DNA of 54,815 nucleotides from positions 1 to 54,815 of the IMG/VR virus record IMGVR_UViG_3300020200_000038. The stretch is one strand, 5' to 3'. This document shows positions 145 through 54,815 of the stretch, piece by piece (position 1 is the stretch's first letter; the number at the start of each line of letters is the position of its first letter). Both the position numbers and the translations under genes were made by a program. The notes under the pieces are model-generated. The model saw only the letters and a list, made by a program, of their open reading frames with translations, did no database searches and had not been told where the DNA came from. The stretch is from a virus. Taxonomy: Duplodnaviria > Caudoviricetes.

Positions 145-3100
145 CTATTCTATATGCTCCAGTTGGTATAGTTGATCAATTATCTTAGCTGCATTGCGCT
201 CTGCTGGTGTAGGTTGATAAGGCTGATCCCCGAAATAATAGTCATTGTTATTCTGCCACCATCCTGGCTCGAACCTCGACCGCCATTGGTTAAGGGTATA
301 AGTACTGTTTTCTCTACTCTTATCGAGACGCTTTTTATACAGCTCCCCAATAGTCTGCGATTCGTGCCACCTGGTGCGCGCCCGTGGATGGATAATACCA
401 TTTCGTTTTTCGTCGACCAGTGCCTGGTCGATGGCTAGTGCCTGGTCGATGGCTTCAGTTATTAGCTCAACCGTACCTGGTGGAGTATTATACCGAATGG
501 GTCTTAGATAAGCGTCTATTGCATCGGCACTCTGGAATTCATTAGGATTCGTATGATGGATCCTGATGCCAGGCAGCCCGCTGTTACTGCTGTTATCGAG
601 ACGCTGTATGAGTCTGGATTCATTCTGCGGATCGATTGCCCACTGTACAGAGGCATCGCGGTCCGCCACGAGGCTCCGGCGGGCCGCCTCCGGCGTAGTG
701 AGATCTAAGTTATCACTATCTTGAATATTAATACTCGGTATGAGAGCAGTATCTAAGAAGAATTGATCTCTATCTTCTGGATCTACTTGTTTTAATATAT
801 TTTCAAAAAGAGCTAAAACCGCCTTATCAACTTGTTCGTTGTCTCCAAGAGCTGAAACCGCGTCTGCAGCCTGGGCGTCACTGATGGGTGATGCCCACTT
901 CAGAAACTTCCCAATCCTATCAGTGACCGATTCAATAATCCCTTGTCCACGTTCTTCCCGTTCTTCTTCATTTGTTATTCCATAGTCAACACTTCGTGCA
1001 ACTGCAGCGTTGCGTGGGGTGTTTGGTCCCCTACTCAACAGGAGTTCGTTCATACGAACCATATCACGTAGAACCTGTGGCTTCGATATGTATTTAGAGA
1101 AAGCACGCCCAGTCATATACACAGCACCGGTGATTACTAAGCCAGTGACACCCCAGTCCGGACCAGCAACCAAGGTCGACCCACCGTGGCCGACCAGATG
1201 GAAACCGGTCATGTATGAGGTGGCCGCTCTCACGCTAATCCCGCTAAGCATAACTCTACGCATTAAGAAGCCACTAACATCACTAGGTATATTTTTATAT
1301 ACAAGTTCACCAGTCTCAAGGAGATACTCTAGATCCTTTACCGTTACCTTTGACCCGGATGACTGTAGCATGTACTCTAGAAAGTTCCGGTTGTTGCTAC
1401 CCGCTCCTGTAGCTAAATTTACACTGGGGTCTAGTCCAAAGGCTTTTCTTACGGCGGCGGGGTTTAGAGTAAATACTTTCTTACCAGCCAGATGAGTGTC
1501 AGTCAGTGTAGGGCTTATGATCTTCTCGAAGAAAGCTCTAGTGGTATTTCGCATTATGCGTTGCTGTATTGTAGCAACAGTAGTCGTAGTATCCACAGCA
1601 TTCTGCACCCACTTATTTAGACCGATTGATGTACCATCATCTAATTTGTTAGCTTGTTCCATAAGCCATGTTCTGTCATTCGTACTTAAATGTAGGTCAT
1701 ATAGAGCTTGCTCGTGTTGTAATGCGTTCGCGTATTGTAACTCCACGTCCGCCTTCGATATAAATTGGCCTTTGTCGTTTGAGGCTTTTTGTATACCCAA
1801 TATAACGTCAGAATTGGGTTGACTGTTAGCTAACTTACGTAGGTCATCTGCAGTAATTGCCCTCTCGACAGATCCGACATCAACCGTCTGAAAGTTTCGC
1901 CACGCTGGTTGTGATTCGAAGTCGATTTCCAGCTGGTTACCGTTGATCTTTCGCACTTGACCGTAGCCGAACCTCTCATGGAACACGCGGCTATCCACCG
2001 CGAGTGGCTGTTTGGTAAAATAGTTAGTTAATCTGGCGCCTATACCGGGAGATACTATACCAAGACTTTGGCCGGTTTTTAACATAACATGCTTTATGTT
2101 TTTAAAGATTTCCGGTGACCCAGCAATAGCAGCAAAGGCTTGTAGCCGGGTTAGATCGAAATGGCCTTTATTTAACAGACTGTCCAGCCAAGTGTCGGGA
2201 TGTAAAAGGGATGATACGTCAAGCTGTTGGTGGGATTTTAGCCAATCGCCCAGATCATCTCCGAACATACTGCCACCAAATCCGGAAGGATAATTTTGGA
2301 CAAGCTTTTCAAGCGGGCCTTCAAATATAGCCTTACCTTGAGCATAAAAAGTATTAGCATCGGCTAATGCCTGTGCTGCCAGAAGGAGCTGTTCCTGTAC
2401 CGAAAGGGCCTTCTTGCCGCCGACCATATAATGCCTAATATTTTTTACCACAGTTGGCATGGGGCGGTCTGATGCACGTATAGCGCTGTCCATAAAACTA
2501 TTTATCGCAGTACGCACGGATTGTTTAAGCTTATAAAGCTCCATATACTCCGGACTTCCATACTGAATCTTTTTCCCTAGTTGGTCGGAAGCGTTAAATA
2601 CGTCATTAATTTCGTTTTGTAATTTCCGTACTTCTATGAAGGTTAATTTCCTAAGCTTACCTGTATTAGGATCGGGTATGATCTTTTTCAACCAGGGCTC
2701 TAGCCATTTTGTGTACGTATCAGGTTTAGCATCCTGCAGGGCTTTAAGTTCTTTATTAATAGCTCCAGTAGGGATTACTTCCTGATCTTTAAGTGCTTTG
2801 TGATTAGCTAGATCCCAAAATCTCTTATATTTGAATGCAGCGGTCTGATGGAATGCTTTCATACCATCTGATATGTTTTGGCTCAGAGCAAGAGTGAGCA
2901 TACCTAGATCTAGATCTGGAGATATATTTTTTAACAGATCTACAGTCTCCTGTCCTACCTGTTGGACAGCTTTTTCATAGGAGTCTCGCATGGGAGCGGA
3001 AAGAATAGGTACCAGGCCAGCTATCTTTCTCCAGTATTTGGGAATCCAGGAATTAGTAGCCATTGTATTAAGCTCAACATTAGTAGCCTCAGCAAGACGG

Positions 3101-4209
3101 ACGACATGCTCAACATCCTTTGGATCGGTACCTATGGTGAGTAGAACTCTATTAAGAAACAGTCGGCCACCCGCGCCGAAACTCCATAATACTACAGCAG
3201 TACCCGCACCATATAGCGTTTCGTTTGCTGCGGTATTTGCGAGAGTTTGTATTTCGGCGCGTATTTCTTGTCCTAGCTGGTTATACCAAGCTACTGCTTT
3301 TGGATCATTGTAATCGATCTCCATTTCACTCCAGTCGTTATACATGTTTTCAAGACCTTTAAGATGCTTCTCGAACCACAGAACGTTATCATGAACTGCT
3401 CTACCGCCCACTGCACCTAAAACATCTCGCGAGAGATCTGGTATAATCCGCCACACACCCCTGGAGCTACCACCATGCCACACTTTCCACAAATGGTTTC
3501 GGACAGCATTACTACCAGCTGTCGCCATCTTAGAAATCCAAACTATCGGAAAGATTTCGTCCATCATCTTTCCGATAGGTTGACCTGCTTCGTACGCCCA
3601 GCCCATCGCCCTGGTCGCGGGCAACGGGCTCTTCGAGGCGGTGCGGGCGGCGGCGTCGATGGCTAGTTTCATCGCCGAGGCGGTAGGTGGGGGTTTAAGT
3701 GGAAACATTATATGGGCAAGCCCGGCTCCTCCCATCTGCGCCAACTCGGCCGAACTGAATAATGGATCCCCCGAGTTCTTTCTGGGCAGTTCCATCATCC
3801 TTATTACTGCTTCGACGTGTTCGAGATTCATATTAAAAGGGTCTATTCCCTCTTTCTGCGCAATCTCCACTGCCCAGTTGGAGTTACTAGTTTCATCCGA
3901 AGATAATGGGATTTGTGCCCATGGGGTCAGTTGAGAGGAATAGAGTTGAAAAAGGGCCAGAACGAAATCGTTAGGAGTTTTACCCAATTTTCTCAGACGG
4001 TGAACGAGGTCGGTCGATGTCATGTTCTCGCTCTCGCTCTTGCGGGTACGGTGCTCAGTCGCGGCACCCCCAACTTTAGCTATGGTTGTTGCCCTCGCTG
4101 TGAGCATGTCGTCCGGCTTGCGCGGGGTATCCGAGGTATCTACTGGTGGGGTATCCGGGGTATCTACTGGTGGGTTATACTTGTTCCACGTCTCCACTAT
4201 GTCAATCAT
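145..4209 (-). CDS. large internal virion / DNA ejection protein (1354 aa)
   Basis: Long ORF downstream of the tail genes, where podophage ejection proteins lie; Ala/Gly-rich hydrophobic segments. Confidence 0.65.
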   Translation of the reverse strand: MIDIVETWNKYNPPVDTPDTPPVDTSDTPRKPDDMLTARATTIAKVGGAATEHRTRKSESENMTSTDLVHRLRKLGKTPNDFVLALFQLYSSQLTPWAQIPLSSDETSNSNWAVEIAQKEGIDPFNMNLEHVEAVIRMMELPRKNSGDPLFSSAELAQMGGAGLAHIMFPLKPPPTASAMKLAIDAAARTASKSPLPATRAMGWAYEAGQPIGKMMDEIFPIVWISKMATAGSNAVRNHLWKVWHGGSSRGVWRIIPDLSRDVLGAVGGRAVHDNVLWFEKHLKGLENMYNDWSEMEIDYNDPKAVAWYNQLGQEIRAEIQTLANTAANETLYGAGTAVVLWSFGAGGRLFLNRVLLTIGTDPKDVEHVVRLAEATNVELNTMATNSWIPKYWRKIAGLVPILSAPMRDSYEKAVQQVGQETVDLLKNISPDLDLGMLTLALSQNISDGMKAFHQTAAFKYKRFWDLANHKALKDQEVIPTGAINKELKALQDAKPDTYTKWLEPWLKKIIPDPNTGKLRKLTFIEVRKLQNEINDVFNASDQLGKKIQYGSPEYMELYKLKQSVRTAINSFMDSAIRASDRPMPTVVKNIRHYMVGGKKALSVQEQLLLAAQALADANTFYAQGKAIFEGPLEKLVQNYPSGFGGSMFGDDLGDWLKSHQQLDVSSLLHPDTWLDSLLNKGHFDLTRLQAFAAIAGSPEIFKNIKHVMLKTGQSLGIVSPGIGARLTNYFTKQPLAVDSRVFHERFGYGQVRKINGNQLEIDFESQPAWRNFQTVDVGSVERAITADDLRKLANSQPNSDVILGIQKASNDKGQFISKADVELQYANALQHEQALYDLHLSTNDRTWLMEQANKLDDGTSIGLNKWVQNAVDTTTTVATIQQRIMRNTTRAFFEKIISPTLTDTHLAGKKVFTLNPAAVRKAFGLDPSVNLATGAGSNNRNFLEYMLQSSGSKVTVKDLEYLLETGELVYKNIPSDVSGFLMRRVMLSGISVRAATSYMTGFHLVGHGGSTLVAGPDWGVTGLVITGAVYMTGRAFSKYISKPQVLRDMVRMNELLLSRGPNTPRNAAVARSVDYGITNEEEREERGQGIIESVTDRIGKFLKWASPISDAQAADAVSALGDNEQVDKAVLALFENILKQVDPEDRDQFFLDTALIPSINIQDSDNLDLTTPEAARRSLVADRDASVQWAIDPQNESRLIQRLDNSSNSGLPGIRIHHTNPNEFQSADAIDAYLRPIRYNTPPGTVELITEAIDQALAIDQALVDEKRNGIIHPRARTRWHESQTIGELYKKRLDKSRENSTYTLNQWRSRFEPGWWQNNNDYYFGDQPYQPTPAERNAAKIIDQLYQLEHIE
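412..453. repeat. 18-bp tandem duplication (AIDQAL x2)
   Basis: agtgcctggtcgatggct repeated. Confidence 0.8.
4123..4173. repeat. 24-bp tandem duplication (PPVDTxDT x2)
   Basis: ggggtatccgRggtatctactggt twice. Confidence 0.85.
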
Positions 4210-4246
4210 AGTACAACCTTTGCACTGAATGAATTTAAGTCTGTCA

Positions 4247-6175
4247 TTAGTTATTACCTTCCTGATTTTTTTGTATTATAGAATAAATTTCCTTCTGCAT
4301 CTTATCCCAGGTGGAAAGATTCTGTTCGTCTACAATGTATATAATATCTACTAGGGCACTTGGTGAAATGGAGTTTTCGCCGGCCATGCTTTCAATAATC
4401 TCTACTAGGAACTGTTGTGACTCGGGGGTTATACTGAATAGATCTATCGTGGTGTCCGGCATACTCGTTTGGAGATGGCTGGCAATCAACTTGATGAAGT
4501 TAGGTGGTAATATTGGAGTAAGCGCCGATAGCAACTTTTTATCCCTATCATCATTTTCGTAATTTTCCAAATTTAAATTGAATTCCCGCAAAACTCCACG
4601 CAGACCCGCCAAAGCACTCGTTTTGTCTTGGAATAAATTTACTGCAGCTCTTGCGATCCTCAATTGATCTACGTTTAGTCGTTGACCAAATTGCCGAATA
4701 TTGGCGAGAATAGAAACAATAGCATTTACCATAACCTCTGACTCAGCAATCTTCGTATTAAATTTAACGGTATAGACACCGGTATAATCCTCAATGTTTT
4801 CAATGAGATTATCCCATTCCGTAAGTTCGTGTAAGTATTCGGCTTTTGTTTTGGCGTCCATGGATTCATCATCATTCACGCCCTTACGTACCGCTTCTAT
4901 GATAGCCGTTGCTTCGTTATACTTCTCCTCGACCGATTTATTGTCATCCTCAATACCTAGCCACTCCGCTTGGAAGTTCGTACCGGGGCCCGTGAAAGTA
5001 TCCAGCAGGTTCGCAACTTGAGATACAAACACCTGAGCGGTTTTTTGAACAACTCGCGTCCACCCGGTAGGGATAGTATCGTTGTCAATACCAGCAATAA
5101 GATCATTAACAGTTGATATACCATTTAAAATAGAATCGACCATGGCTTGCTGGTTGCGCGAATACTCCGCATCCACAGGGTTTAGTTCGTCTAGAATACT
5201 AACTGGTACCTCCACGTCAAGATCTAATGGAAACGGACACAAATATGAAGCAGCATCTTTTACTCTGCTACACATCATCTGTGTCCCTTTTTCTACCTTA
5301 AAAATGGTATGCCCGTCTGGTGTATCGGCATTAAACGATGTTCTAAATGCGACAAGCTTGCTCGCATCTAATTGTCGTGGCGGTGTGCCGTATTGACTCG
5401 CAAATTGGGCTAGTTGCATGATAGCTGCTTGAGGTAGTCCCTGGTTGCGCAGGGCTAAAGCGTTGAAAAGTATCCGGAGGTTATTGGTTCCCGATCCCGC
5501 GAAGTTATTGGTTCCCGATCCCGCGAAGTTATTGGTTCCCGATCCCGTCATGGCCGCCGTTACTGCAGCCAAGTCATTAGAACTAAGGTTGCCATTCTTC
5601 CCCAGCTCCGCCATTACATCTTCAAGCATACGGAAAAACAGCTCATCATACGGATCGGACTTTCCTGTGGATTTTGGTAGCCAATTAATTTGATACTCAG
5701 CTATAGCCTGGTAGTCCCCCCGCACCAGCATCGGCCAAAGCTCTTTCTGTTGCGGTATGGGGATGGATGGCCAATTGTCAATCACGAGCTGCCGTATGTT
5801 ATTTGCCATATCGTCGGGGTTGGGGTCAAACTGGATAGCAACTCCCTCATCGTCGCCCGCCGTCGCCGTGAGCCGGTACAAGTCCCCAACAGGTATACCA
5901 TTCAGTGCTGCGTACCAGGCTACCTGCTCCCGAAATTCCCCAGGAATGTGTGAAAGTGCTGGTATATAACTCTTGGCTTTTTCTTGCAGGCCGCGCTGTT
6001 CCGTCTCCTCTTTGAACTTATTTTTCTCCTTCTCTATGATCAGTGCCGTCCGAATATCAGCAGCTTCCTCCTCAGCGGCCTGAAGCTTAGCTTGTTCTGC
6101 TGCACGCTGTTCTTCACGCTGCGTATTAGCAGCATTTAGAAAACCTGTTCCAAATCCAAGTAGAAAACTAGACAT
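4247..6175 (-). CDS. internal virion / ejection protein (642 aa)
   Basis: N-terminal FLLGFGTGF followed by a coiled coil; position in the ejection gene block. Confidence 0.6.
   Translation of the reverse strand: MSSFLLGFGTGFLNAANTQREEQRAAEQAKLQAAEEEAADIRTALIIEKEKNKFKEETEQRGLQEKAKSYIPALSHIPGEFREQVAWYAALNGIPVGDLYRLTATAGDDEGVAIQFDPNPDDMANNIRQLVIDNWPSIPIPQQKELWPMLVRGDYQAIAEYQINWLPKSTGKSDPYDELFFRMLEDVMAELGKNGNLSSNDLAAVTAAMTGSGTNNFAGSGTNNFAGSGTNNLRILFNALALRNQGLPQAAIMQLAQFASQYGTPPRQLDASKLVAFRTSFNADTPDGHTIFKVEKGTQMMCSRVKDAASYLCPFPLDLDVEVPVSILDELNPVDAEYSRNQQAMVDSILNGISTVNDLIAGIDNDTIPTGWTRVVQKTAQVFVSQVANLLDTFTGPGTNFQAEWLGIEDDNKSVEEKYNEATAIIEAVRKGVNDDESMDAKTKAEYLHELTEWDNLIENIEDYTGVYTVKFNTKIAESEVMVNAIVSILANIRQFGQRLNVDQLRIARAAVNLFQDKTSALAGLRGVLREFNLNLENYENDDRDKKLLSALTPILPPNFIKLIASHLQTSMPDTTIDLFSITPESQQFLVEIIESMAGENSISPSALVDIIYIVDEQNLSTWDKMQKEIYSIIQKNQEGNN
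5480..5547. repeat. 24-bp tandem repeat, about 2.8 copies (GSGTNNFA)
   Basis: gttattggttcccgatcccgcgaa repeated. Confidence 0.9.
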
Positions 6176-6806
6176 TTTCAGGGCGCTCCATAATACTTAG
6201 TTTTTCAGACTTTTTAGAAGGGGGCGGTACAGGGCGATAGGGTGTAGAGCTAAGAGTCATTCTAGCTCCCATAATAGCAGCCTCATTTCCACGCTTCTTC
6301 AAGCCAATTTTCATATTTTTAATATCGGCAGCCTTGCCCAGAGCAACAACCATAGCTAGAGTTGGGCGAGCCATTAATAGAGCTACATCTGGAGTCCACT
6401 TTCCTCCAGCAAAGCCTGCGAATAATACAGTTTTAGTAATAGCTTCAGCTGGTACACCGTGCTTAAGTAGTGTTAAGAGTTTTGTTATATGGGGCTTCGT
6501 TAGTAACTGACCATACGTGTAATTTAATGCTTTACGAACGTCTGTAAACTGTGGGGGATGTTCCCAAGCAGCATTACCAGGGCTATCTGTTAGTGACTGT
6601 CCAGGAATAGCTGCATTGAACTCATTAAAATTGTTGAGCTCCGGTAGATTGAGATTCTGTAGCCGATCACTATCCATTCTCTTTATACCCGGCCTTGTCC
6701 AGGGTCCAGGCTTACCAATGCGTATTACAGAAGGTTCACTACTGTGTGGCCTGTTTGTTCGGCGATGGCCACCCCCAAGAGTATTAGTTTCTGATTCGAT
6801 TAGCAT
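6168..6806 (-). CDS. conserved virion-module protein (alternative start at 6677)
   Basis: IPGQSLT...WEHPPQF motif of the kind seen in podophage structural modules. Confidence 0.6.
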   Translation of the reverse strand: MLIESETNTLGGGHRRTNRPHSSEPSVIRIGKPGPWTRPGIKRMDSDRLQNLNLPELNNFNEFNAAIPGQSLTDSPGNAAWEHPPQFTDVRKALNYTYGQLLTKPHITKLLTLLKHGVPAEAITKTVLFAGFAGGKWTPDVALLMARPTLAMVVALGKAADIKNMKIGLKKRGNEAAIMGARMTLSSTPYRPVPPPSKKSEKLSIMERPENV

Positions 6807-6879
6807 TTATACACTTCTCCCTAATGAATTCTGTATTATGTTTACCTGATGCATTGTGATTATCCATATTGATCGTCGA

Positions 6880-7233
6880 TTAATAAAGCTGTTGAGTCCT
6901 ATGTTTGTACTCATATTCTCCTGCAAGAATCGATAGTCGAGCTTTCCATTCCGCATATATTCTTTCAATATCAACTGACGGAGAAATACCTTTTTCCATT
7001 CCCCCGGTGATTGATCCTGGTTCAAACGATGCATAAAGGTTTAGTGGGATTACGGATGTGCGTAACCCTCTCCGATCCCTACGATTCATAATACTCGGAG
7101 ATTGTGACCTCTTGTCTAGGGTTGCAATACCAGCCTTGCCTATATTCTTGAAAATACTGTCCCCGTCAAAGATATCAACGACAGACTTAATCGTATCAGT
7201 TAGAAAATCAAAAGCTGTAGAGAATAATGACAT
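6880..7233 (-). CDS. hypothetical virion-module protein
   Basis: ORF in operon orientation with RBS-like GGGA. Confidence 0.55.
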   Translation of the reverse strand: MSLFSTAFDFLTDTIKSVVDIFDGDSIFKNIGKAGIATLDKRSQSPSIMNRRDRRGLRTSVIPLNLYASFEPGSITGGMEKGISPSVDIERIYAEWKARLSILAGEYEYKHRTQQLY

Positions 7234-7251
7234 GGTTATTTCCCGTTTGTG

Positions 7252-8643
7252 CTACTTACTGCCAAATAATAAATTAAAGGCAAATTGTCCAAGCATTTCG
7301 AAAAACACTTGTTTATTTTGCTTATCTAGAAAATCAAACTCAAAATCTCTTTCAATAGCTGCCATGGTAATGTTTTGGGCACGATTCTTGTTATTCTCGG
7401 ATGTCATAATAGCCCATGAAGCTTCATCCCTGAACTGTTGCCAGATATTGGCTAGTGCTTGTGTTGAAAGATTATAGAGATTTTCTACATTAGCAGCATT
7501 GGCTGCATTAACAGCGGCCGTATCAGCTGTATTGATAGCTCTACGCCAAGCAGTATTACTTTGATCAATTACTAGTTGATTTGATGTATTAAATTGCTCA
7601 CGAGTAGTAGCTAAATTACTATTAAATTGGGCTAGAGCATCAGCTTGTTGAGCATTAAATTGCGCCATACCTGTTTGCATTTGTGCGTTCTGTGTGGAGA
7701 TGGTAGATGCTAGATTTGTGAAGAATTGGTCGTGCTGTTGTTGGTTAGCAGCATTGAACTGCCTAGCAGCATTCAGTGCAGCTTGATCTGACAGAAGGGT
7801 CTGAGAGATAGCCTGCATATTGATCATGGCAGCTTGTTGGCTATTGTTAAGATTAGACACATCCATATCAAAAAACTTTTGAGCATTTAGAACAGCAGCT
7901 TGTTGTTTATTAGTAAGATTTTGTATATCCAGTTGAGCCAAAGAACTTGCTCTTAACATAGCTACTTGCTGTTTGTTAGTGAGATTGGCCAATGTCATAG
8001 TTTCGAAGAGTTTGGCATCTTGTTGTGCTATAGGGAGGGCGGCTTGCATAATAGCCATACTAACAGCTTCACCGGCCATTGTACTAGCTGATACTCCACG
8101 AGCAGCCATACTAGCTTCGGCTTCTCTAATTGCTCCAGCAGCCCATCCAGGATACTCCCCAGGAACGAAATTCATCAACTGCTCATATTGATAACGAACC
8201 AGTGAACGAGGATCAACTTCTGCTTGAACAGCTTGTCCAATACCACCAGCAGCATCAAATGCCTCTAGTGTTTGTGCTGTTTGTGCCTGAACCTTAGAAG
8301 AATCTGTCACTTGTTTTTGGGCGGCCTGCACCTGTGGTGTTTGGTCGACTACAGCACTAGCAGTATATCCCGTAGGTTGGGTTTGAAATGGTAGTTGTGC
8401 TTTTACAGCTGTTCCGGGAGATGGGGAAACTTGATATGCTAATGGATTAATAGGCTGTTGTTGCATTAATTCTTCTGGTCGGAGCTGCGTAAAGACAGGA
8501 ACCGCAGCAGTCCCAGCAGGCAGTGCTGGGGAGTTAACCAACTCGCCCATCTGATCTAATACAGATACTTTATTTGGGTTTTGATTTGGGTCTTGATTTG
8601 GGTCTTGTTGATTAATAATTGTGTTAACATTAGGAATTGTCAT
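7252..8643 (-). CDS. Gln/Asn/Ala-rich internal virion (ejection/pilot-like) protein
   Basis: Repeated QFNA/NQQQ motifs; follows the tail fibre block. Confidence 0.7.
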   Translation of the reverse strand: MTIPNVNTIINQQDPNQDPNQNPNKVSVLDQMGELVNSPALPAGTAAVPVFTQLRPEELMQQQPINPLAYQVSPSPGTAVKAQLPFQTQPTGYTASAVVDQTPQVQAAQKQVTDSSKVQAQTAQTLEAFDAAGGIGQAVQAEVDPRSLVRYQYEQLMNFVPGEYPGWAAGAIREAEASMAARGVSASTMAGEAVSMAIMQAALPIAQQDAKLFETMTLANLTNKQQVAMLRASSLAQLDIQNLTNKQQAAVLNAQKFFDMDVSNLNNSQQAAMINMQAISQTLLSDQAALNAARQFNAANQQQHDQFFTNLASTISTQNAQMQTGMAQFNAQQADALAQFNSNLATTREQFNTSNQLVIDQSNTAWRRAINTADTAAVNAANAANVENLYNLSTQALANIWQQFRDEASWAIMTSENNKNRAQNITMAAIERDFEFDFLDKQNKQVFFEMLGQFAFNLLFGSK

Positions 8644-8738
8644 TAGTTTTTATCCATTATTAATATCGTATTCCAGCACCGTCGAAACTTACGACAGCAA
8701 TGCATCCAACCCCAACGATGGTCTCAAGGGTTTTCTAC

Positions 8739-9113
8739 TTAAACTAGATCCTTTCTTACCCATGAAAGAGTTGCTTCATCCCATTGGTAATGCTCACCAT
8801 CAACAGGATAGGAAACAGGTGCATTCCAAAAACAGGTGTTTTCATCTAATATCCAGGATGCAAACGGTTTTGGAGGAATGAACGTATTACGATCCACATC
8901 GTATGTGTAACCAATCCCCGCATAATTCTTGCGGAACGGTATGCCGCCATTAGAATGAACACCACCGTGGGTATTATATGAGGTGCGCTTACATGGTTGA
9001 CCTCGGAATGCGCTATAATGCGCTTCCCAATCGATCCCTTCTTCACCTTCATTTTTGCCGACAATCACTTCAGTAACAATGCTGTTTTCATTAAGAAATG
9101 CATAATGTGCCAT
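8739..9113 (-). CDS. tail-fibre-associated small protein
   Basis: MAHYAF...TSYNT...RKNYAGIGYTYD...FIPPKPFASW...W pattern, typically found next to Gly-rich fibre genes. Confidence 0.7.
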   Translation of the reverse strand: MAHYAFLNENSIVTEVIVGKNEGEEGIDWEAHYSAFRGQPCKRTSYNTHGGVHSNGGIPFRKNYAGIGYTYDVDRNTFIPPKPFASWILDENTCFWNAPVSYPVDGEHYQWDEATLSWVRKDLV

Positions 9114-9125
9114 TATTAACTCCTG

Positions 9126-10070
9126 TTAACTCCAAGAAACATTACCTGTGCCAGCGGTGAATATGGTTATTTTAGAATTGCCAGAAGTAGATGTGGAGTA
9201 AGTCAGACCACCGCCCGGATTGGAGATGGTAAAGGTATTAGGATATTGAATGATAACCACCCCTGAACCGCCAGACCCTCCAATGCTACTGGCAACTCCT
9301 GATGCTCCACCACCGCCACCTCCGGTATTTACTGAGCCAGAACTTCCATTGCCAGTACTGGAACCATTGCCACCGCCACCAGCACCACCAAGTCCGGCGG
9401 CTGCGTTCCCCGATGTCGTATTTCCACCACCACCACCACCGCCAGCCCTGGTCACGGAAGAACCGGTAATGGATGACGCGGTGCCAGCTCCACCAACACC
9501 GCCAGAGCTTGTGGTACCGTCCGCTCCTGCTGCACTAGCACCACCTCCTCCACCACCTCCATTATTATCTCCAGAGGTAAAGCCCTTACCGCCGGCAGAT
9601 CCTTCAGCTGGAGAGTATCCGCCAGAGTTGCCTGCCCCGCCAGCGCCGTGGTCCCACGAACCGCCTCCGGAACCGCCAGAAAACCCATCATATTCTCCAG
9701 TCGGCCTGTTCGGACCTCTTCCACCACCTGACGAAGTTGTCGTCGCAAAAACAGAATTGCTACCTTGCGTACTATTAGTCCCGCCTGCCCCTACAGTAAC
9801 GACGTAATTAGTAGATGGGACTATAGATTGAGAAGTAAATGACCGGTAACCACCAGCACCACCGGCACCCATACCCCACTGTGTAAAGACGCCGTTTGTT
9901 CCACCACCACCACCACCTGCTACAACAAGGTAATCTGCGAGAAAAGAAGAAAGAGGCCAATTGCCTGCCTGTCGTGCTTTGGATTGCTCTTGCAAACCCC
10001 ACACCCCAGAAGCGCTGGTGGTGGTTGGATTGTTTGCTACTCCAATAATTCCACCATTCCAACGTACCAT
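9126..10070 (-). CDS. glycine-rich tail fibre/receptor-binding-type protein
   Basis: YLVVAGGGGGG...GGSGVVII Gly-rich domain; likely start ATG 10070 overlaps the upstream stop (TAATG). Confidence 0.7.
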   Translation of the reverse strand: MVRWNGGIIGVANNPTTTSASGVWGLQEQSKARQAGNWPLSSFLADYLVVAGGGGGGTNGVFTQWGMGAGGAGGYRSFTSQSIVPSTNYVVTVGAGGTNSTQGSNSVFATTTSSGGGRGPNRPTGEYDGFSGGSGGGSWDHGAGGAGNSGGYSPAEGSAGGKGFTSGDNNGGGGGGGASAAGADGTTSSGGVGGAGTASSITGSSVTRAGGGGGGGNTTSGNAAAGLGGAGGGGNGSSTGNGSSGSVNTGGGGGGASGVASSIGGSGGSGVVIIQYPNTFTISNPGGGLTYSTSTSGNSKITIFTAGTGNVSWS

Positions 10071-10444
10071 TAGGAGATTTCCTCGTAAGAACAAACCACC
10101 TTGAGGTCATTGGCCGCGCTAGCAGTCGCACCGATTGACTTGTTTTCTTCTAAGTAAATTGAGGTATTTTTATCAATCACCACCAAAGATGCGTCCGCAG
10201 GGACCAGCACCGTGTTGACAATTTGTGTTGCTGTGCCACTGATATTAGCCAAAGAATACAGGTTTACGGTAATTTCAGCACTATTAGTTCCATCCACATT
10301 TGAGACAATCAGCGAGTTGATCTTGAAAACCTTATTGCTTCCAGCTGTATTCTCGACCACCAAGGTGGCATTGGTCGAGGTGAGATCGGTAACCGCAGTC
10401 TTGCCCCGAATATCGGTAACATTGACGATGTTTGGGTTTGCCAT
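10070..10444 (-). CDS. tail-fibre-associated structural protein
   Basis: MANPNIVNV...SYEEIS beta-rich protein; RBS AGGAG. Confidence 0.65.
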   Translation of the reverse strand: MANPNIVNVTDIRGKTAVTDLTSTNATLVVENTAGSNKVFKINSLIVSNVDGTNSAEITVNLYSLANISGTATQIVNTVLVPADASLVVIDKNTSIYLEENKSIGATASAANDLKVVCSYEEIS

Positions 10445-10454
10445 TTAATTGCTC

Positions 10455-11729
10455 CTATCCGAAAACAAGTGACATTGCTATTGCTTTGCCAGTATTAATA
10501 CCGCCCAATGAAGAAAGGGCCGCGCTTGCAGATGTCTGCCCCGTTCCGCCGTTTGCAATTGCCAGCGCATTGGTGGGCGTTAAAGTCGTGGCTGTCAGCG
10601 CACCTGTGCTGGGGTTGAAAGTCAGTTTGGTCGATGAGACATCAAAGGTTGTTTCTGTGCCTGTAGTCAGGTCACTAAATGTAAGATAACGGGTTGCATT
10701 AGTTGTTGTATCGTTCGTAATTGTAATACCGCTTGCTGACCAGGTAGGGGCTGAAGCTCCGTTTGAAGTCAATACATACCCCGACGTTCCGGTTGAGTTT
10801 GCAAGGGCCAGGGTGCTGGTGATATTTAAAGTTGTGACCTTTGCCGAGGCCGCCGTTGTCTGACCGATGGCCACGTTATCCATGGTTGAGGCAGTTGTTG
10901 GGTTAATAGTCAGCGCACCAGCCGGAGATATTGCAACCGTTCCTGTTCCTGTTGGACTAATGCTGACCGCTGCGTTTGCAGGATTTATAGTAGTCGCAAC
11001 TTCAAGGGATAAGTTATTTCCACCACTAGATCCCCATTGCATCTGAGAAGTCCCGCTTGCATTTTGCAAAATTCCGCCTGTAGATGAAGTCGCCTTAAAT
11101 ATTGGACTACTAACTCCCGTACCATTCGCTACGACAGTAATATCCGTTATTCCAGTTAGTGAGCCTCCAGTTATAGATACAGAAGAAGCATTTTGTGTTG
11201 CTATACTTCCAAGACCTAGATTAGTACGGGCATCTGTCTGATTGCTAGCACCAGTACCACCATCAGAAACCGTAATATCTGTTATTCCAGTTACTGAACC
11301 CCCAGTTATAGATACAGAAGAAGCATTTTGTGTTGCTATACTTCCAAGACCCAAATTAGTACGAGCATCTGTCTGATTGCTGGCACCAGTACCACCATCT
11401 GCGACAGTAATATCCGTTATTCCAGTTACTGAACCCCCAGTTATGGCAACTGCATTAGCTGCTTGAGTAGCTATAGTACCAAGTCCTAATGCTGTTCTAG
11501 CATCAGCAGCAGTAATTGAACCAGTACCACCTTTAGTAATAGGTAATATACCAGTTGTACTTGTTGTAAGCGAAATTGATGCACCGCCACCTGCAGTACC
11601 ATCATGATTGTGTCCTGTAGCTGCATGCATAGAGCTGGTGATATCATTAAATTCTGCCGTAAAATGAGATGCTTGAATTGTAGCAGCAGTCACAATATCA
11701 TTTCTACTATATATATAACCTACTGGCAT
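10455..11729 (-). CDS. tail fibre protein
   Basis: N-terminal GHNHDG anchor, GGTGA...ARTNLGLG repeats, C-terminal GKAIAMSLVFG. Confidence 0.8.
   Translation of the reverse strand: MPVGYIYSRNDIVTAATIQASHFTAEFNDITSSMHAATGHNHDGTAGGGASISLTTSTTGILPITKGGTGSITAADARTALGLGTIATQAANAVAITGGSVTGITDITVADGGTGASNQTDARTNLGLGSIATQNASSVSITGGSVTGITDITVSDGGTGASNQTDARTNLGLGSIATQNASSVSITGGSLTGITDITVVANGTGVSSPIFKATSSTGGILQNASGTSQMQWGSSGGNNLSLEVATTINPANAAVSISPTGTGTVAISPAGALTINPTTASTMDNVAIGQTTAASAKVTTLNITSTLALANSTGTSGYVLTSNGASAPTWSASGITITNDTTTNATRYLTFSDLTTGTETTFDVSSTKLTFNPSTGALTATTLTPTNALAIANGGTGQTSASAALSSLGGINTGKAIAMSLVFG
11130..11445. repeat. 132-bp tandem repeats in the tail fibre gene
   Basis: ITGGSVTGITDITV...GGTGASNQTDARTNLGLGSIATQNASSVS repeated. 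Confidence 0.85.
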
Positions 11730-11732
11730 TTA

Positions 11733-13310
11733 TTATCTCCGTCCTGCAATCGCATAATCAATCACAAACCCTTGAATAGTATGTGATGAGTCAGTGGCAC
11801 TAGCTACAGAAAAATTTAAAGCTACTTCAAAACCTGAACCTACAGTATTTTTTGTTAATACAGAATTATCTTCAGTACCATAAGTTGCATTTCCATAAGT
11901 CCCTGTACCATAAACAGAATTAGAGGAAGTTTTAGTAATTGTAATATTGGCTGGTTGTATGATACCGAAAGCATTGTGGTCATATTCTAGACCAAGATTT
12001 ATGGTTGTTGTACCTTCAACTTTATAAAATATTTTTACTCTATGCAGTGTTTTTCTTATACCTGGGTCACCAAAAGTAATATCAGCAGTGCGAAATATGG
12101 AAGTAATTGCTGTATTATTAAAATTAACTCCATTTTCCTGCCGATAAACAAACCCATCAAAACCCCCATGGATTACATATTCATCTTCATTAATAAATGA
12201 TGAGTCAACTGTATGAGGTTTAATGCCTTTTAATGTTGACCATTCCCATACTAATCCGCCCTCACTTTGAGAACGAATACCACCCAAGATACCTAAAGCT
12301 TGAGTTTCAGCTTGACCGGTAGTAGGATAAAATACTCTATATTGATTTTTCTTACGAACAGCAGTAGCTACAACATTGTTAACCCCTGCTGTAGGTACCA
12401 TAGAATTAGCAGTTGATTGAATATTACGTGAGATTGAGCCTAGTTCAAAGTCATCATTTCGTTCAGTTGCGGCAAGAGTTCTGACACCATCCGGACCAAC
12501 GAACAGGATATCACCACCAACTTCAACGATACTATTAGGTGCGATACACCCAATATTTTCAGTAATAGGTAATAATTGAAAATCTAGAGTATTAGAACCG
12601 GTCAGTCTATGAATACTGTTTTCACAAAAAATAATAAGTTGATCACGAAAACGAACTAAACCAGTAATAGTATCGCCAACAACTAAAGTACCTGAATTTC
12701 CACCACTAAAAGCTGTTTCAGCAAGATTATTACACCATTTAATCTCACCGGTATTAGCTGTGTAACCAGCATAGAATATGTAATTCTTAAATTCTTCTAT
12801 ATATTTAGGATTAACTGGTGCCCCAAGACCTGCGGTAGTATTAATTAATGTATAAGTTGTGCCATCCCATCGTGCAGGAAAATCAACACCATCAACCATA
12901 ATAACACGTTTAATACCAGTCCAGTTATAGCGTACAAAATTGTATTTACTTTGAAAACTAGTACGTGGAGTGGCGCCATTAATAGCTGTACCCCAACCAG
13001 AACCAATACTGAAGAATACATCGCTATTATTAGTTCCAGAGCGCTTCTTGGCAGCAAGAACACCAGCCCCAAATACGCATACACCTAAGACTGGAGCACC
13101 TGCTTGTCCTGTAACTTCATTAAGATCGAACTTATTAAAACCACTAAGACGACGATAGCCACCGCCTAAAGCAGGCTCATAATTCTGAAGCTTAAGAGCA
13201 TGACCAGGCTTTAAACTCAAAATGTTAGAATGAGTTTGAAGACCACCTTCACAAATACCCATAAGGGGCTTAATTTTGTCGCGTTCGCCTGTTCCAGAAA
13301 GTTGAGCCAT
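11733..13310 (-). CDS. tail nozzle / tubular protein B-like (head closure)
   Basis: GGL..., GCIAPNSIVEVGGDILF motifs; beta-rich, 525 aa; follows the adaptor gene. Confidence 0.75.
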   Translation of the reverse strand: MAQLSGTGERDKIKPLMGICEGGLQTHSNILSLKPGHALKLQNYEPALGGGYRRLSGFNKFDLNEVTGQAGAPVLGVCVFGAGVLAAKKRSGTNNSDVFFSIGSGWGTAINGATPRTSFQSKYNFVRYNWTGIKRVIMVDGVDFPARWDGTTYTLINTTAGLGAPVNPKYIEEFKNYIFYAGYTANTGEIKWCNNLAETAFSGGNSGTLVVGDTITGLVRFRDQLIIFCENSIHRLTGSNTLDFQLLPITENIGCIAPNSIVEVGGDILFVGPDGVRTLAATERNDDFELGSISRNIQSTANSMVPTAGVNNVVATAVRKKNQYRVFYPTTGQAETQALGILGGIRSQSEGGLVWEWSTLKGIKPHTVDSSFINEDEYVIHGGFDGFVYRQENGVNFNNTAITSIFRTADITFGDPGIRKTLHRVKIFYKVEGTTTINLGLEYDHNAFGIIQPANITITKTSSNSVYGTGTYGNATYGTEDNSVLTKNTVGSGFEVALNFSVASATDSSHTIQGFVIDYAIAGRR

Positions 13311-14419: not shown

Positions 14420-14431
14420 TTATTATCCTAA

Positions 14432-14893: not shown

Positions 14894-14905
14894 TTAAATG
14901 CCTCC

Positions 14906-15832: not shown

Positions 15833-15849
15833 TTTATTCTCCTATAAAA

Positions 15850-16686: not shown

Positions 16687-16701
16687 TTTTGTCTCCTTTG
16701 T

Positions 16702-16766
16702 TAGGGTCGAAAATCGAGTAGCCTATCGAGAAGACCGACCTAGGGGCTGATTGCTCAGGTGGCCTA
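16702..16766 (-). promoter_or_regulatory. two tandem RNA hairpins in the scaffold mRNA leader
   Basis: UAGG-CCAC-CUGA-GCAA-UCAG-CC-CCUA and UAGG-CUAC-UCGA-UUU-UCGA-C-CCUA immediately before the AAGGAG RBS. Confidence 0.65.
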
Positions 16767-17210: not shown

Positions 17211-17229
17211 GTTATTCTCCTTAAATTTT

Positions 17230-29239: not shown

Positions 29240-29270
29240 TTGGTTGTTGGTTGTTGGTTGTTGGTTGTTG
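29240..29270. repeat. (TTGGTTG)4 heptamer repeat
   Basis: Same heptamer as at 27675 and 27876. Confidence 0.9.
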
Positions 29271-51611: not shown

Positions 51612-52046
51612 TTATGGTGCCTTATTGAATATGTTGAAGCCAGCTTCTAATGCTCCTAGGGTACCGCCTATTAGTATGCCGATAACGCCTATGCCTTTAG
51701 CTACGCCTTTGGTTAGTTGAGACTCCCGCTTTAGTTTTTCTACATCATTGCGGGTTGTTAAAAAGTCAGCTAGGGTATCCTTGGTTATTAATTGTAAGCT
51801 ACTTATATGCTCCACTTGGTATAGTTGTAGGGTTTTAAGTTGTGCCCCTAGCTCTCTACCTAGCTCAGCAATCTGCGTCTGTAGCCTCTCATCTGACTTG
51901 TTTAGGGCCGAATGAATGGCTGCATGGTCAATACGATTCATCTGAACATGAGCTTCGGCAGTGTCTTTAATTGATCGTATTTCTGTTTCAACTGTTGCCA
52001 TACGTTCCCGTAAGGCGATATCAATCAATTGTGGAGACTCATCCAT
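51612..52046 (-). CDS. coiled-coil protein with C-terminal TM (lysis module)
   Basis: Heptad pattern plus GIGVIGILIGG. Confidence 0.6.
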   Translation of the reverse strand: MDESPQLIDIALRERMATVETEIRSIKDTAEAHVQMNRIDHAAIHSALNKSDERLQTQIAELGRELGAQLKTLQLYQVEHISSLQLITKDTLADFLTTRNDVEKLKRESQLTKGVAKGIGVIGILIGGTLGALEAGFNIFNKAP

Positions 52047-54815
52047 TATCTTGGGCCTTTACGTTCCGTAAATCAATTTGCCACCAGGAGTTATTATCAT
52101 CATCCACTACTAGCTTTGCGCCATAGTTTTGTTTGACATATGTTCCAATATCCTCGCCGCGATTGTATAGTCTAGAATATGACAGGCTACCCGGGTGTTC
52201 TTTTTGATAATCTTGGAGAACAGCCTGATACCGTGGATTGAGTGTCCGAGAAATCTTTTTTGTGCTTAGCGCTTTGATAATATCCGTATATTCTTGACTG
52301 AGGGGATTATCCAGTTGCGTGAATACGGCGATCATTTCAGAGCTAACTTTTTCCGACTGTGAGATTAAGTTATCTCTGAATTTATTCATGTTGTGTCTAA
52401 TCTTCGTCGGATTTCTTGTCCTCTGGAGCTGACCAGGTAGGGGCTTGGACCTTTTCTTACTTACCAGTAGACGAGCATGCTGGAACGATTCGATATCACT
52501 CTGTGACGGACTGTTCCAGCGTACCAGGTTGTCAATCTCTTCCTCCAGAATTTGTCTTCGTACTGTAGCATCAGGTACATCCTTTAAGCGCGCAAGAAAC
52601 AGCGGGATCCTGAGGATGTTGAGCATGTCGTCCGTCTTGCTGTGCCGAAAAAACTCTCCCGGCCTTGATCGTATTTCTGTTTCAGGCCAGGTTGTCAATC
52701 TCTCCCTCCAGAATTTGTCTTTTAGCTCGCCATAGTTTTGTTTGACATATGTTCCAATATCCTCTTGGTAGGTCAGCAGGTCGTCTTTAAGAGGCCAATT
52801 GTCCGAAATAAGATTCAAGGTCTTCATCAGTTGCGAGGCCGGCGGTATTGCAGTCTGATACAATCCGGCATAGTCATACAGTATGCGCTTGAGCTGGTCG
52901 AAGGGGATAATAAACTTAAGATTGTCAGGTATTAGGTCGCTTATAATACTATCTACAACAGCGCTTTTTATTTTTTCAAGAGGCCAGTTGTCCGAAATCT
53001 TTCGTGGCACTATTTGGTTAAAATTCTCTAGCTTGGCTGTCGTAGTTGGTGTTGGAAAGTGTATAAATTCAACACCATCTATTATTCCTTTTTTGATTTC
53101 GGCATTCACGAAGAATTGCCACCAGTTATCTTTCAACATCAAGAATGGTTGAAGCGTTCCAGCTGGGTATACCATTTTTAAGGAATGAGAAAGACTATAA
53201 TATAACTCGCTAAGTCCTTGGGCTTGGATTTGGGTGTTGTATTGATTTTTCCAATGGGCAGTTGTCTCAATATACCTCAAAGAATCCAGAAACCTCGGAA
53301 AATCGGATAATTCGCCTTCATACCCAAGTATTTTTATCAATTTATGTATGTTCTCTAGATAATCGCTTTGAATCTCTAGTACATATCGCTTGCTGCCAAC
53401 CCCACTCGTTGTATTATATGCCAGCTTAATATTGAAGTCTATTTCGGCCTGACTTACTAGGTCCCCTGATTTCATTGTAGCAGATTTTTCAGTAAGTAAG
53501 TTGTATAATTTCCCTGCAGCGGCTACGTATTTACTGTGGAGTCCAGACAGGTTGTCGGCATCAATTGTACGAGTATGTGCTAGATAATTAGTGAAATCCT
53601 TTGCAAAATGCTCTGATGTGAAGTCTATTCCAGGAATTTGATATATATTAGTTTGTGGATTGCCAAGTACATATGTCAAAACCTGATCTTGATTTAATAG
53701 ATTGCCGATGCGAGTAGTAGGATCCCGGGGAATACTCGCGTCACTGGGGTGATTACTAAGGTGAGTAAATGTTGCTAATGCTAGTTGAGACTTCCGTGCT
53801 TCTCCATATCGAAGAATAGATTCCATTTTAGGGTCGTTTTGCTCAGCAGCGATAGCCTGCTCAATAGGCAAGCGTTGCCGGGTTGCCGCTAGTTCTGGAG
53901 AAACAAAAAATTCTTTTCCTGTTCTGCTTGAAAACGCACGTGGAGAGTCTGCTGTGGATTTTCCCCCCGGTTTGGGGGCTATATTGCTTACTCGGAACGA
54001 CTCGACTTGATCAGCAGGAACATCGATGTACGTTAATATCCCGTTCGGGTACTCATGGTCGAGATACCACTGTGCTTCTGCGCGGTCATCAGTAAACCAA
54101 CGCCCCGTCGCCGCAAGCGTGTTTTTGTAATTGTCAGACTCTGTAATCCATGCAGCGATAGACTGCTTTGGAGCATCGGGATTTTCCTCCGCCCGATACA
54201 ATCGAACAGTTTTCGGGGTAGCAGCATTGCCTACTCGGAACGACTCGACAAGCGCCTCAAATGCACGCTTGGTAGCAGCTTCTGTCAAGTTATCCCGCAC
54301 TAGTTCTTTTAGGTAATCAAAGTTTTCAAGTATTTTTATACTATTGTCTAATGTTTTTAAATCTTCTTGTAGCATGTCGTAAGTCTTTACGGTAGTGCTG
54401 GCCGGCGCTCCGGCGCGTTCGGCGATACTAGTGAATTGCCCATAAGGCTGTCCAGTCGAATCGAGCAGTTTCCGAGTGGTGTAATTGCCATTTATAGGAT
54501 TAACTATAAAGTTAAAAAACGTATTGCCAATATTAGCTGTATCGGAAACAAGGTTGTTTTTCCTAAGTTGGTTATAAAGCTCCTTGAATTCTTCGGGTTT
54601 GACGGTGCTGGTGTACTCGAGGGTTAGCTCGGCTCTATCCCTTGGAAAATGGAGTTCTTGGTTGATGCGCTCAATGATCGAGTCGTTTGATTCTTGAGAC
54701 TGTGGTGCGGGTACTGCTGTAGTATTATGGAGTTTAGACGCGGGTGGCCGAAATACCCGCACCATATAGCGTTTCGTTTGCTGCGGTTCAAGGTTTTCAG
54801 GATTTAAGATCCTTA
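52039..54815 (-). CDS. large polyvalent-type internal virion protein, 5'-truncated at the window edge
   Basis: Frame stays open from 54765 to the right edge; contains an ART-like segment and HF...YLAHTR...LEIQSD...FPT motifs. Confidence 0.7.
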   Translation of the reverse strand, partial: RILNPENLEPQQTKRYMVRVFRPPASKLHNTTAVPAPQSQESNDSIIERINQELHFPRDRAELTLEYTSTVKPEEFKELYNQLRKNNLVSDTANIGNTFFNFIVNPINGNYTTRKLLDSTGQPYGQFTSIAERAGAPASTTVKTYDMLQEDLKTLDNSIKILENFDYLKELVRDNLTEAATKRAFEALVESFRVGNAATPKTVRLYRAEENPDAPKQSIAAWITESDNYKNTLAATGRWFTDDRAEAQWYLDHEYPNGILTYIDVPADQVESFRVSNIAPKPGGKSTADSPRAFSSRTGKEFFVSPELAATRQRLPIEQAIAAEQNDPKMESILRYGEARKSQLALATFTHLSNHPSDASIPRDPTTRIGNLLNQDQVLTYVLGNPQTNIYQIPGIDFTSEHFAKDFTNYLAHTRTIDADNLSGLHSKYVAAAGKLYNLLTEKSATMKSGDLVSQAEIDFNIKLAYNTTSGVGSKRYVLEIQSDYLENIHKLIKILGYEGELSDFPRFLDSLRYIETTAHWKNQYNTQIQAQGLSELYYSLSHSLKMVYPAGTLQPFLMLKDNWWQFFVNAEIKKGIIDGVEFIHFPTPTTTAKLENFNQIVPRKISDNWPLEKIKSAVVDSIISDLIPDNLKFIIPFDQLKRILYDYAGLYQTAIPPASQLMKTLNLISDNWPLKDDLLTYQEDIGTYVKQNYGELKDKFWRERLTTWPETEIRSRPGEFFRHSKTDDMLNILRIPLFLARLKDVPDATVRRQILEEEIDNLVRWNSPSQSDIESFQHARLLVSKKRSKPLPGQLQRTRNPTKIRHNMNKFRDNLISQSEKVSSEMIAVFTQLDNPLSQEYTDIIKALSTKKISRTLNPRYQAVLQDYQKEHPGSLSYSRLYNRGEDIGTYVKQNYGAKLVVDDDNNSWWQIDLRNVKAQDNG

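Follow-up and report, generated by a model that had tools for sequence, protein, structure and literature searches.

The stretch of DNA analysed here (the window, 54,815 bp) is the whole of the linear IMG/VR record IMGVR_UViG_3300020200_000038, and the features under study are short tracts, or patches, of 20–57 bp that are found in one gene of this phage and again elsewhere in its genome, most of them in three large genes encoding proteins of 1354, 1737 and 630 amino acids. The portal protein shares 55.6 % identity with its counterpart in Pelagibacter phage HTVC033P and 49.5 % with the one in Puniceispirillum phage HMO-2011. Relatives of it are encoded on 149 IMG/VR stretches, with a maximum identity of 58 % among the 80 listed. 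The label HMO-2011-type, given to the phage in an earlier note made from the letters of the window (the sequence-only reading), holds as judged from sequence, with no close sequenced relative within reach. Of the words sampled from positions 145–9000, 22–99 % are present in at least ten lake-water metagenome runs from 2018.

The 630-aa gene (17230–19122) adjoins the portal gene and the 1354-aa gene lies at 145–4209. The third gene is divided between the two ends of the record. A 1737-aa protein (P0001) encoded on a different contig (32,759 bp) is 100 % identical to the window's open reading frame (ORF) of more than 908 aa over all 908 compared residues. The match to P0001 places the C-terminal 924 codons of the 1737-aa gene at 52039–54815, where the window ends inside the gene, and the N-terminal 43 codons (MPINRLVTEH...) at 1–131, both on the minus strand. 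Both ends of the record thus fall within this gene, and about 2.3 kb (approximately 770 codons) is absent between them despite a CheckV completeness estimate of 100 %; the true genome size is probably about 57.1 kb. The absent 2.3 kb is known solely as protein, from P0001. Near the N-terminus of the gene, contigs from two of the Logan runs considered below (X1 and X4) match the window from position 21 and are preceded by 236 other letters, and another contig departs from the window after position 86, indicating an alternative sequence context there.

The position of the 1354-aa gene is that of HTVC033P gp52 (1393 aa), downstream of the gp56 and gp54 homologues, which is the place of the large internal virion proteins (IVPs) of podoviruses. 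Synteny with HTVC033P is the one line of evidence that places the 642-aa and 1354-aa genes in this class, with no sequence match, and the 1354-aa protein is thus a candidate by position. No relative of it was found in viral or metagenome contigs and a word-based homologue search was empty. The same was true of the 630-aa protein in viral contigs and in the word-based search, and its best Protein Atlas score (0.77) was under the useful range. PHROGs and Pfam gave no match for the 1354-, 642-, 630-, 908-, 326- and 212-aa proteins, and a tblastn search of 13 window proteins against 83 loci gave matches for the 212-aa and 463-aa proteins alone; records very close to the window may lie outside these searches, which do not show that relatives are lacking. 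According to PMC4819975, large podovirus IVPs are notoriously difficult to identify by sequence similarity, the divergence of IVP-C being especially rapid, and they host domains that act in the cytoplasm.

In the 1737-aa protein, a single conserved domain of about 125 residues (window 53850–54230; residues ~180–306 of the 908-aa part) is shared with 210 proteins of 90 to 5690 aa at E≤0.001. Among 14 long domain-sharing proteins that were scanned, three carry ART-PolyVal, two LPD39 and one LPD38, and SLT or helicase domains are present in some domain-sharing proteins. Pfam has no family in P0001 at E≤0.01 and no model for the shared domain. Through this one domain, the 1737-aa protein is a candidate member of the polyvalent class.

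Six pairs of matching tracts had been quoted in the sequence-only reading, and all six are present in the window. Five are simple, namely 151–174/51804–51827 (23 of 24 nt identical), 3090–3119/52613–52642 (30 of 30, inverted), 17938–17974/31877–31913 (37 of 37, inverted), 27467–27491/28419–28443 (25 of 25) and 51971–51990/52665–52684 (20 of 20). The sixth, 3163–3234/54703–54787, is compound and consists of an inverted 49-bp copy with two mismatches and a direct, exact 34-bp copy, with 11 nt common to both. An all-vs-all self-comparison of the window returned 79 exact matches of at least 16 bp and 49 of at least 20 bp; in 20 order-3 Markov shuffles there were 0–5 matches of at least 16 bp, and the longest match was 15–20 bp. 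Part of the raw excess is made up of periodic repeats (108-bp Sel1 units, a 135-bp tail-fibre repeat, 7-bp intergenic tandems and 18–24-bp in-frame tandems). When ten tandem or periodic arrays were masked, 13 exact matches of at least 20 bp were left, compared with a mean of 0.0 in 30 shuffles, and 12-mers in the masked window were at expectation (150 vs 148). About 20 dispersed pairs are found when one or two mismatches are permitted.

The patches have sharp edges. Their cores are 95–100 % identical, while the flanking 45 nt on each side agree at 4–19 positions, which is approximately random, and blastp between partner proteins detected no similarity outside the patch itself. Diverged paralogy and gene conversion that depends on flanking homology are therefore excluded.

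Perfect or near-perfect in-frame tandem duplications of 18–24 bp were also seen, at 419–454, 4124–4178, 5480–5547, 17256–17322 and 17982–18020. These in-frame tandems sit in the same large structural genes as the dispersed patches. Among the intergenic repeats, a 193-bp unit at 27558–27917 is present in 1.8 copies, each ending in a perfect (TTGGTTG)n tandem of about six units, and a third (TTGGTTG)n tandem lies at 29240–29270. The repeats bearing this tandem may be iteron-like or regulatory.

In the 630-aa gene, self-comparison and junction analysis delimited a patch-rich core at 17607–18192 (here and below, the patches and their partner copies are on the minus strand unless a plus is given). 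Within the core, 18000–18192 is fully tiled by six other stretches of the same gene: 17982–18002, 17702–17715, 17607–17655 (49 bp), 17715–17740, 18170–18192 and 17858–17914 (57 bp). The overlaps at successive junctions are 1, 1, 1, 9, 8 and 0 nt. A 39-nt unit is contiguous at 17702–17740 and again at 18737–18773, and within 18000–18192 it is split by an exact, in-frame copy of 17607–17655 that is 48 nt, or 16 codons, long. The copy at 18737–18773 is the third of the 37-nt unit 17702–17738, with two mismatches and in the same frame. A different source is indicated for the 41-bp patch at 17934–17974, which with one mismatch matches 31877–31917 (plus) in a 212-aa early gene (31659–32297) in the same sense and frame, the common peptide being EVILEQDNPITS. 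The patch has a GC content of 0.27, compared with 0.35 in the 212-aa gene and 0.47 in the 630-aa gene. Since the patch is closer to the 212-aa gene in GC content, this gene, the protein of which is found on three contigs, is the probable donor. The 37-bp patch had no exact match in viral contigs.

Two patchworks were found in the 1354-aa gene. The first (3090–3234) has three pieces, with 3090–3126 an inverted copy of 52606–52642, 3163–3211 an inverted copy of 54703–54751 and 3201–3234 a direct copy of 54754–54787. The second (4069–4121) has two, of which 4069–4092 is an inverted copy of 6343–6366 with one mismatch, and 4101–4121 is a direct copy of 52620–52640 and an inverted copy of 3092–3112. 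The partner at 6343–6366, detected by self-comparison, lies in another 212-aa gene (6168–6806), a homologue of HTVC033P gp54. At 2715–2737, a 23-bp patch is an exact copy, in the same sense and frame (LQDAKPDTY vs RQDAKPDTF), of 41741–41763 (plus) in the gene for the family-A DNA polymerase (40215–42272). The latter copy is inside the motif SRQDAKxxTFKPLYGG, which is conserved in the HTVC033P polymerase, and the polymerase is therefore the likely donor. The statement in the sequence-only reading that the polymerase gene holds no such tract was thus incorrect. Finally, a 24-bp patch at the C-terminus of the 1354-aa gene (151–174) is in the same frame as a copy in the 144-aa gene (QLYQLEHI vs QLYQVEHI), with one mismatch.

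The copy in the 144-aa gene (51612–52046) is at 51804–51827, and a second, exact patch of 20 bp in this gene (51971–51990) is in frame with 52665–52684. In a strain variant of the 144-aa protein, both patch peptides are kept and one residue is changed. The position 52665–52684 belongs to a four-piece patchwork in the 1737-aa gene (52606–52764), the pieces of which match 3090–3126 (inverted), 51971–51990, 52524–52558 (frame-shifted, one mismatch) and 52119–52155 (37 bp), with gaps of 22, 2 and 6 nt. Tiling thus bears out the patchworks reported earlier in the 630-aa and >908-aa genes. The 37-bp partner at 52119–52155 is exact and in the same frame as 52728–52764 (EDIGTYVKQNYG). The 35-bp partner at 52524–52558 is 163 nt from 52687–52721 and, because of this spacing, is read in another frame. 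A 21-bp pair with one mismatch, 52789–52809/52978–52998, is in the same frame and encodes ISDNWPL. Further along, a 24-bp copy at 53983–54006 encodes VESFRVSN inside the sole conserved domain of the protein, where the family consensus is AEKYRVSN, and is the probable donor of the recipient copy VESFRVGN at 54226–54249, which abuts KRAFEAL (54250–54270) and lies just upstream of the conserved domain. In P0001, KRAFEAL is found at residues 995–1001 and also at 544–550, which are absent from the window; at the sequence level this suggests a further patch within the absent 2.3 kb.

At 54703–54787, a direct copy of 3201–3234 and an inverted copy of 3163–3211 are separated by 2 nt. Their common source is a contiguous 72-nt stretch of the 1354-aa gene, of which 11 nt (3201–3211) are present in both. 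The result is a fold-back, with a hairpin-forming 11-bp inverted repeat (54703–54713 with 54754–54764) around a 40-nt spacer. This geometry is a strand-switch signature, which requires DNA synthesis by a strand that changes template and is not produced by cut-and-join. The possibility that 54765 is a start codon masked by the hairpin was considered and rejected, as the ORF runs on upstream in P0001.

Self-comparison also yielded a 24-bp patch at 6875–6898 that straddles the stop codon of the 117-aa gene and has an exact partner, in the same sense, at 39064–39087 (plus) in a 291-aa gene with a weak nucleotidyltransferase PHROG match (38799–39674), and a 25-bp exact patch at 27467–27491 (plus) in the 326-aa gene, in the same frame (QRDADYEA) as its partner at 28419–28443 (plus) in the Sel1-repeat gene (28007–28738). 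Overall, the patches are concentrated rather than genome-wide as had been proposed: 31 of 40 copies are in the 1354-, 1737- and 630-aa genes, which make up 15.8 % of the window (binomial p ~1e-17), and 18 of 20 pairs touch one of the three. The other copies are in the 144-aa gene, the two 212-aa genes, the end of the 117-aa gene and the 291-aa, 326-aa, Sel1 and DNA polymerase genes. In 12 of 20 pairs the partners are within 1.1 kb of one another, and three pairs are 14–25 kb apart.

The tracts are used in the same frame, in a shifted frame and in antisense without stop codons, as the sequence-only reading had observed. Among 21 pairs, 14 agree in sense and frame, three in sense only and four are antisense (p ~5e-7 for the in-frame class against an expectation of 1/6), and 6 of 11 cross-gene pairs are in frame. 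Most patches are free of stop codons in four to six of the six frames, so the avoidance of stop codons does not explain this bias. As the set includes two three-copy families, the 21 pairs are not fully independent. The frame bias, the least well explained feature of the patches, would reflect selection acting on the peptides so inserted. From the sequences compared, a direction can be assigned to three events, which appear to run from the polymerase motif to the 1354-aa gene, from the conserved-domain motif to the adjoining segment of the 1737-aa gene, and from an AT-rich patch to the GC-richer 630-aa gene. In all three the move is from a constrained to a plastic context.

Related phages were compared with the window. 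The window holds 11 exact matches of at least 20 bp whose partners are separated by 1.5 kb or more, and there are two, zero and one in the first 50 kb of HTVC033P, HMO-2011 and MW202701, respectively. Inverted matches of at least 20 bp number five in the window and zero in each of the three relatives over the same 50 kb. The matches in the relatives are glycine-rich low complexity, paralogues or periodic domain repeats. About 38 partial relative loci (9–22 kb) have 0–2 such matches each. Such matches are few or absent in the three near-whole relatives and the partial loci. Near-perfect tandem duplications of 18–24 bp (at least 95 % match) are somewhat commoner in the window than in the relatives.

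The joints were examined in Logan contigs, not raw reads, from four runs (X1, X4, X5 and X6), which were compared with window positions 1–20000. X1 is possibly the source sample and the other three are other samples. The contig pieces cited are among the matches listed, and gaps in coverage carry no meaning. Contig breaks, the fold-back joint and P0001 provided an indirect check of the partner copies in 31877–54815. Six of eight X1 contig breaks are at exact repeats of at least 31 bp (3205–3211, 5509–5518, 11196–11322, 17285–17293, 17608 and 18140), where a k=31 assembly graph is expected to break if each repeat is present in the reads in both of its contexts. Single contigs run without differences across patches of less than 31 bp. 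In X1 and X5, contigs that begin at 52 cross the patch at 151–174, and 6875–6898 is likewise spanned in both runs. In X1, contigs also span 2715–2737, 3090–3126 and 4069–4121, the last in a contig covering 3205–5509. The tract 18170–18192 is spanned in X4 and 18737–18773 in X6, in a contig covering 18661–19043. The 1354-aa gene version of 3163–3234 is carried by an X6 contig (3091–3520), in a region where the X1 contigs break at 3205–3211, and X4 and X5 each have one contig with the opposite-strand joint 3163/3201, which is the fold-back version at 54703–54787. The patchwork 52606–52764 is encoded unchanged by P0001, which stems from another assembly. Over the 20 kb, three base differences and three one-base insertions or deletions were seen in the contigs of the four runs. 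No alternative joints at patch sites were found in them over 1–20000, though contigs drop rare variants.

These data bear directly on the possibility that chimeric assembly, chimeras of multiple displacement amplification (MDA) or a pipeline error made the patches. The fold-back, only 28 nt from the contig end, has the look of an inverted MDA chimera, and the record itself is broken inside a gene. MDA chimeras are long-arm, and a patch requires two switches within 20–57 nt. The patches and the fold-back joint are reproduced in independent Logan assemblies from other samples, with X4, X5 and X6 contigs spanning patches, so the joints on which the sequence-only reading depended recur in independent libraries. 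A different contig encodes an identical protein, and artefacts would not be expected to leave ORFs intact or to show a strong frame bias. Given the contig spans, P0001, the 144-aa variant and the frame statistics, an artefact is ruled out for practical purposes and we give it hardly any credence.

We favour, with moderate confidence, an origin of the patches in microhomology-mediated template switching that took place serially, in replication or repair, and the products of which were filtered by selection. While DNA is replicated, or a break is repaired in a replication-coupled manner, the growing 3′ end would leave its template, re-anneal on either strand at another place in the same genome through a few bases of microhomology, and copy 20–57 nt before switching again, sometimes repeatedly at one site. 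Selection would then retain the outcomes with an open frame, mostly those read in the frame of the donor, and the survivors would accumulate in the three large, poorly conserved genes. The patches look like the scars of a template-jumping replication enzyme, not the output of a dedicated diversification machine. The enzymology and timing of the switching, and selection rather than mechanism as the cause of the frame bias, are what we infer in this scheme.

Several features of the window are as expected for template switching, the mechanism that the sequence-only reading had also named. Patchworks of 50–190 bp, with two to six donors each, are found at four places (18000–18192, 52606–52764, 3090–3234 and 4069–4121). 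Both orientations are seen (4 of 21 pairs antisense), an exact, in-frame insert of 48 nt interrupts the 39-nt unit, and most partners are close. At three junctions, neighbouring patches have 9, 8 and 11 nt in common, which fits microhomology-primed switching; elsewhere there are overlaps of 0–1 nt or gaps of 2–22 nt, with no ancestral allele from which to read the true junctions. A number of points weigh against this explanation. No ancestral or patch-free allele was found, relatives among the matches listed reaching at most 58 % portal identity, and so insertion cannot be told from replacement, nor microhomology read at most junctions. The frame bias (14 of 21) exceeds what a stop-codon filter gives and calls for strong peptide selection or something else, the two three-copy families reduce the independence of the 21 pairs, and the three pairs 14–25 kb apart are far for fork-local switching. 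The enzyme cannot be named, and contigs alone would reveal neither ongoing activity nor rare variants.

The replication and recombination genes of the phage encode a primase, a DnaB-like helicase, a UDG-family ORF, PolA (family-A), a PD-(D/E)XK/Cas4-like nuclease, a RusA-like resolvase and a metallophosphoesterase, and as judged from sequence the replication module is ordinary. The UDG-superfamily ORF (197 aa, 39625–40218) is directly 5′ of the polymerase gene with a 4-nt overlap, and the polymerase (40215–42272) contains a DnaJ CXXCXGXG-type insertion.

The bias toward the donor's frame leads to the possibility that the patches persist as shared peptide modules, that is, as functional linear motifs of 7–19 residues, binding for example a common virion or host partner, with the mechanism of duplication secondary. 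The 14 of 21 pairs that keep sense and frame though most patches are open in four to six frames, the 6 of 11 cross-gene pairs in frame, the retention of both patch peptides in the strain variant of the 144-aa protein, and the motifs that recur two to three times in the 630-aa protein, the patch-rich core of which has 68 % disorder-promoting residues, would all follow from it. We nevertheless consider it unlikely, as the four antisense and three frame-shifted pairs encode unrelated peptides, a motif from the catalytic region of the polymerase has no obvious use in a virion protein, and nucleotide identity of 95–100 % with no synonymous drift fits recent copying. Function at the RNA level is more doubtful still, to the point of being very improbable. 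Here antisense complementarities of 37 and 49 nt would pair the mRNAs of the 1354-aa and 1737-aa genes and regulate their translation or stability, which the adjacency of these genes on the same strand and complementarity at 35 of 37 and 47 of 49 nt would allow, but the supposed start of the downstream gene lies within the coding sequence of the 1737-aa ORF, just 4 of 21 pairs are covered, and no RNA run was among those listed as containing the phage.

A dedicated, programmed system, in which a phage activity writes templated patches into host-facing genes, was the proposal of the sequence-only reading. The clustering of 31 of 40 copies in three large genes for virion or injected-type proteins that occupy 15.8 % of the window, the absence of such a density from relatives, and donors that include conserved genes with recipients that are plastic are consistent with it. 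It is nonetheless improbable, since neither a reverse transcriptase nor any dedicated enzyme was found, the genes for replication and recombination are ordinary, each pair has its own sequence with no recurring boundary motif by eye, and the arrangement in the contigs of four runs, where patch sites have no alternative joints, is repeated in a second assembly. To speak of a system that generates novel peptides in host-facing proteins is beyond the evidence; a mutational process with selection, as in the template switching that we favour, explains the pattern without a dedicated machine. Of the sequence-only reading as a whole, the matches, the patchworks, the distinction from a diversity-generating retroelement (DGR) and template switching stand, and the genome-wide spread, the absence from the polymerase gene and the dedicated system do not.

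Comparison with known systems leads to the same distinctions. As in a DGR, templated sequence is written into phage virion or host-interaction genes, but DGRs have a reverse transcriptase, a single template repeat/variable repeat pair and adenine-specific changes, and this phage has many unrelated donor–recipient pairs. A search for PF00078 in six frames of the record gave no match at E≤1 (the control was positive in 4 of 14 genomes), P0001, which extends over the absent 2.3 kb, has no Pfam family at E≤0.01, and 4 of the 13 mismatches over ten imperfect pairs involve A. With no reverse transcriptase, no adenine bias and about 20 unrelated pairs in place of one template/variable pair, a DGR was rejected. 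Mosaics of pilE/pilS, vlsE and VSG genes use homologous silent cassettes with conserved flanks. In such cassette conversion, short patches from elsewhere in the genome likewise make mosaic coding sequence, but in this phage the flanks show no relationship and unrelated genes that are themselves functional serve as donors; with 4–19 of 45 flanking nt identical and blastp finding the patch alone, segmental conversion of the cassette type was rejected. A mobile element resembling a miniature inverted-repeat transposable element was also rejected, as each pair has its own sequence, families have at most three copies and there is no common boundary motif by eye.

Microhomology-mediated break-induced replication (MMBIR) and fork stalling and template switching (FoSTeS) are described mainly at the breakpoints of large rearrangements in eukaryotes and Escherichia coli. 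The window resembles them in having short templated segments joined in direct and inverted orientation, some junction microhomology and donors that are mostly near, and the concatenated templated segments in both orientations that mark these processes are present in the four patchworks and at 54703–54787. It differs in that about 20 small in-frame insertions or duplications are fixed in phage coding sequence, with no large rearrangement. Templated insertions are made in polymerase-theta end-joining, and 'short template switch' mutations create inverted repeats. Tracts of 10–60 nt, a snap-back geometry, a hairpin-forming inverted repeat and a family-A polymerase in the phage are points of likeness to these, but donors here may lie 5–25 kb away and no helicase–polymerase fusion of the polymerase-theta type was seen. 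Nothing shows that the family-A polymerase of the phage is responsible. The recipient genes are at positions of the IVP-C/D type, and one shares a domain with ART-PolyVal, LPD38 or LPD39 proteins. Template switching itself is a known mutational mechanism. A literature search, with most subscription journals outside its reach, returned no phage with about 20 fixed, mostly in-frame, intragenomic templated patches in large orphan virion genes. Intragenomic templated micro-patches are not described as a source of divergence in the accessible parts of PMC4819975 or PMC5512222.

Several other features of the window were recorded. A high-GC island at 26000–29000 (GC 0.53–0.59, compared with 0.42 overall) includes the 326-aa gene (GC 0.60) and the Sel1-repeat gene (GC 0.58), and may be a recent acquisition from a GC-richer source. 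A trypsin-like peptidase ORF (24332–24979) and a 539-aa ORF (35290–36909) for which the PHROG is labelled 'peptidase' are in the early/middle regions. In all four runs, the summed contig depth over the glycine-rich, collagen-like gene at 9126–10094 (approximately 9330–9930) is 3–10 times higher and loose ends and alternative joints are numerous, which is due either to cross-mapping from other organisms or to length-variable repeats.

If the template-switching reading is right, it points to a concrete and testable origin of the extreme divergence seen in podovirus internal virion and polyvalent proteins, and offers a natural example in which proteins are shaped by MMBIR-like synthesis. Short-read assemblies break at such repeats, which could also pass for chimeras; the break of the record itself inside the 1737-aa gene has no traced repeat. 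A broader idea, which we put forward only tentatively and consider rather unlikely, is that unusually switch-prone replication or repair in this phage lineage stitches pieces of 20–57 nt from the phage's own genes, usually in frame, into packaged and probably ejected proteins, and so acts as a generator of new coding sequence. If true, proteins engaged in the arms race would owe part of their sequence to intragenomic copy-paste and not to point mutation or horizontal exchange, and the phage would have a route to rapid viral protein innovation that is free of reverse transcriptase, giving a mechanistic reason for the orphan status of internal virion and polyvalent proteins.

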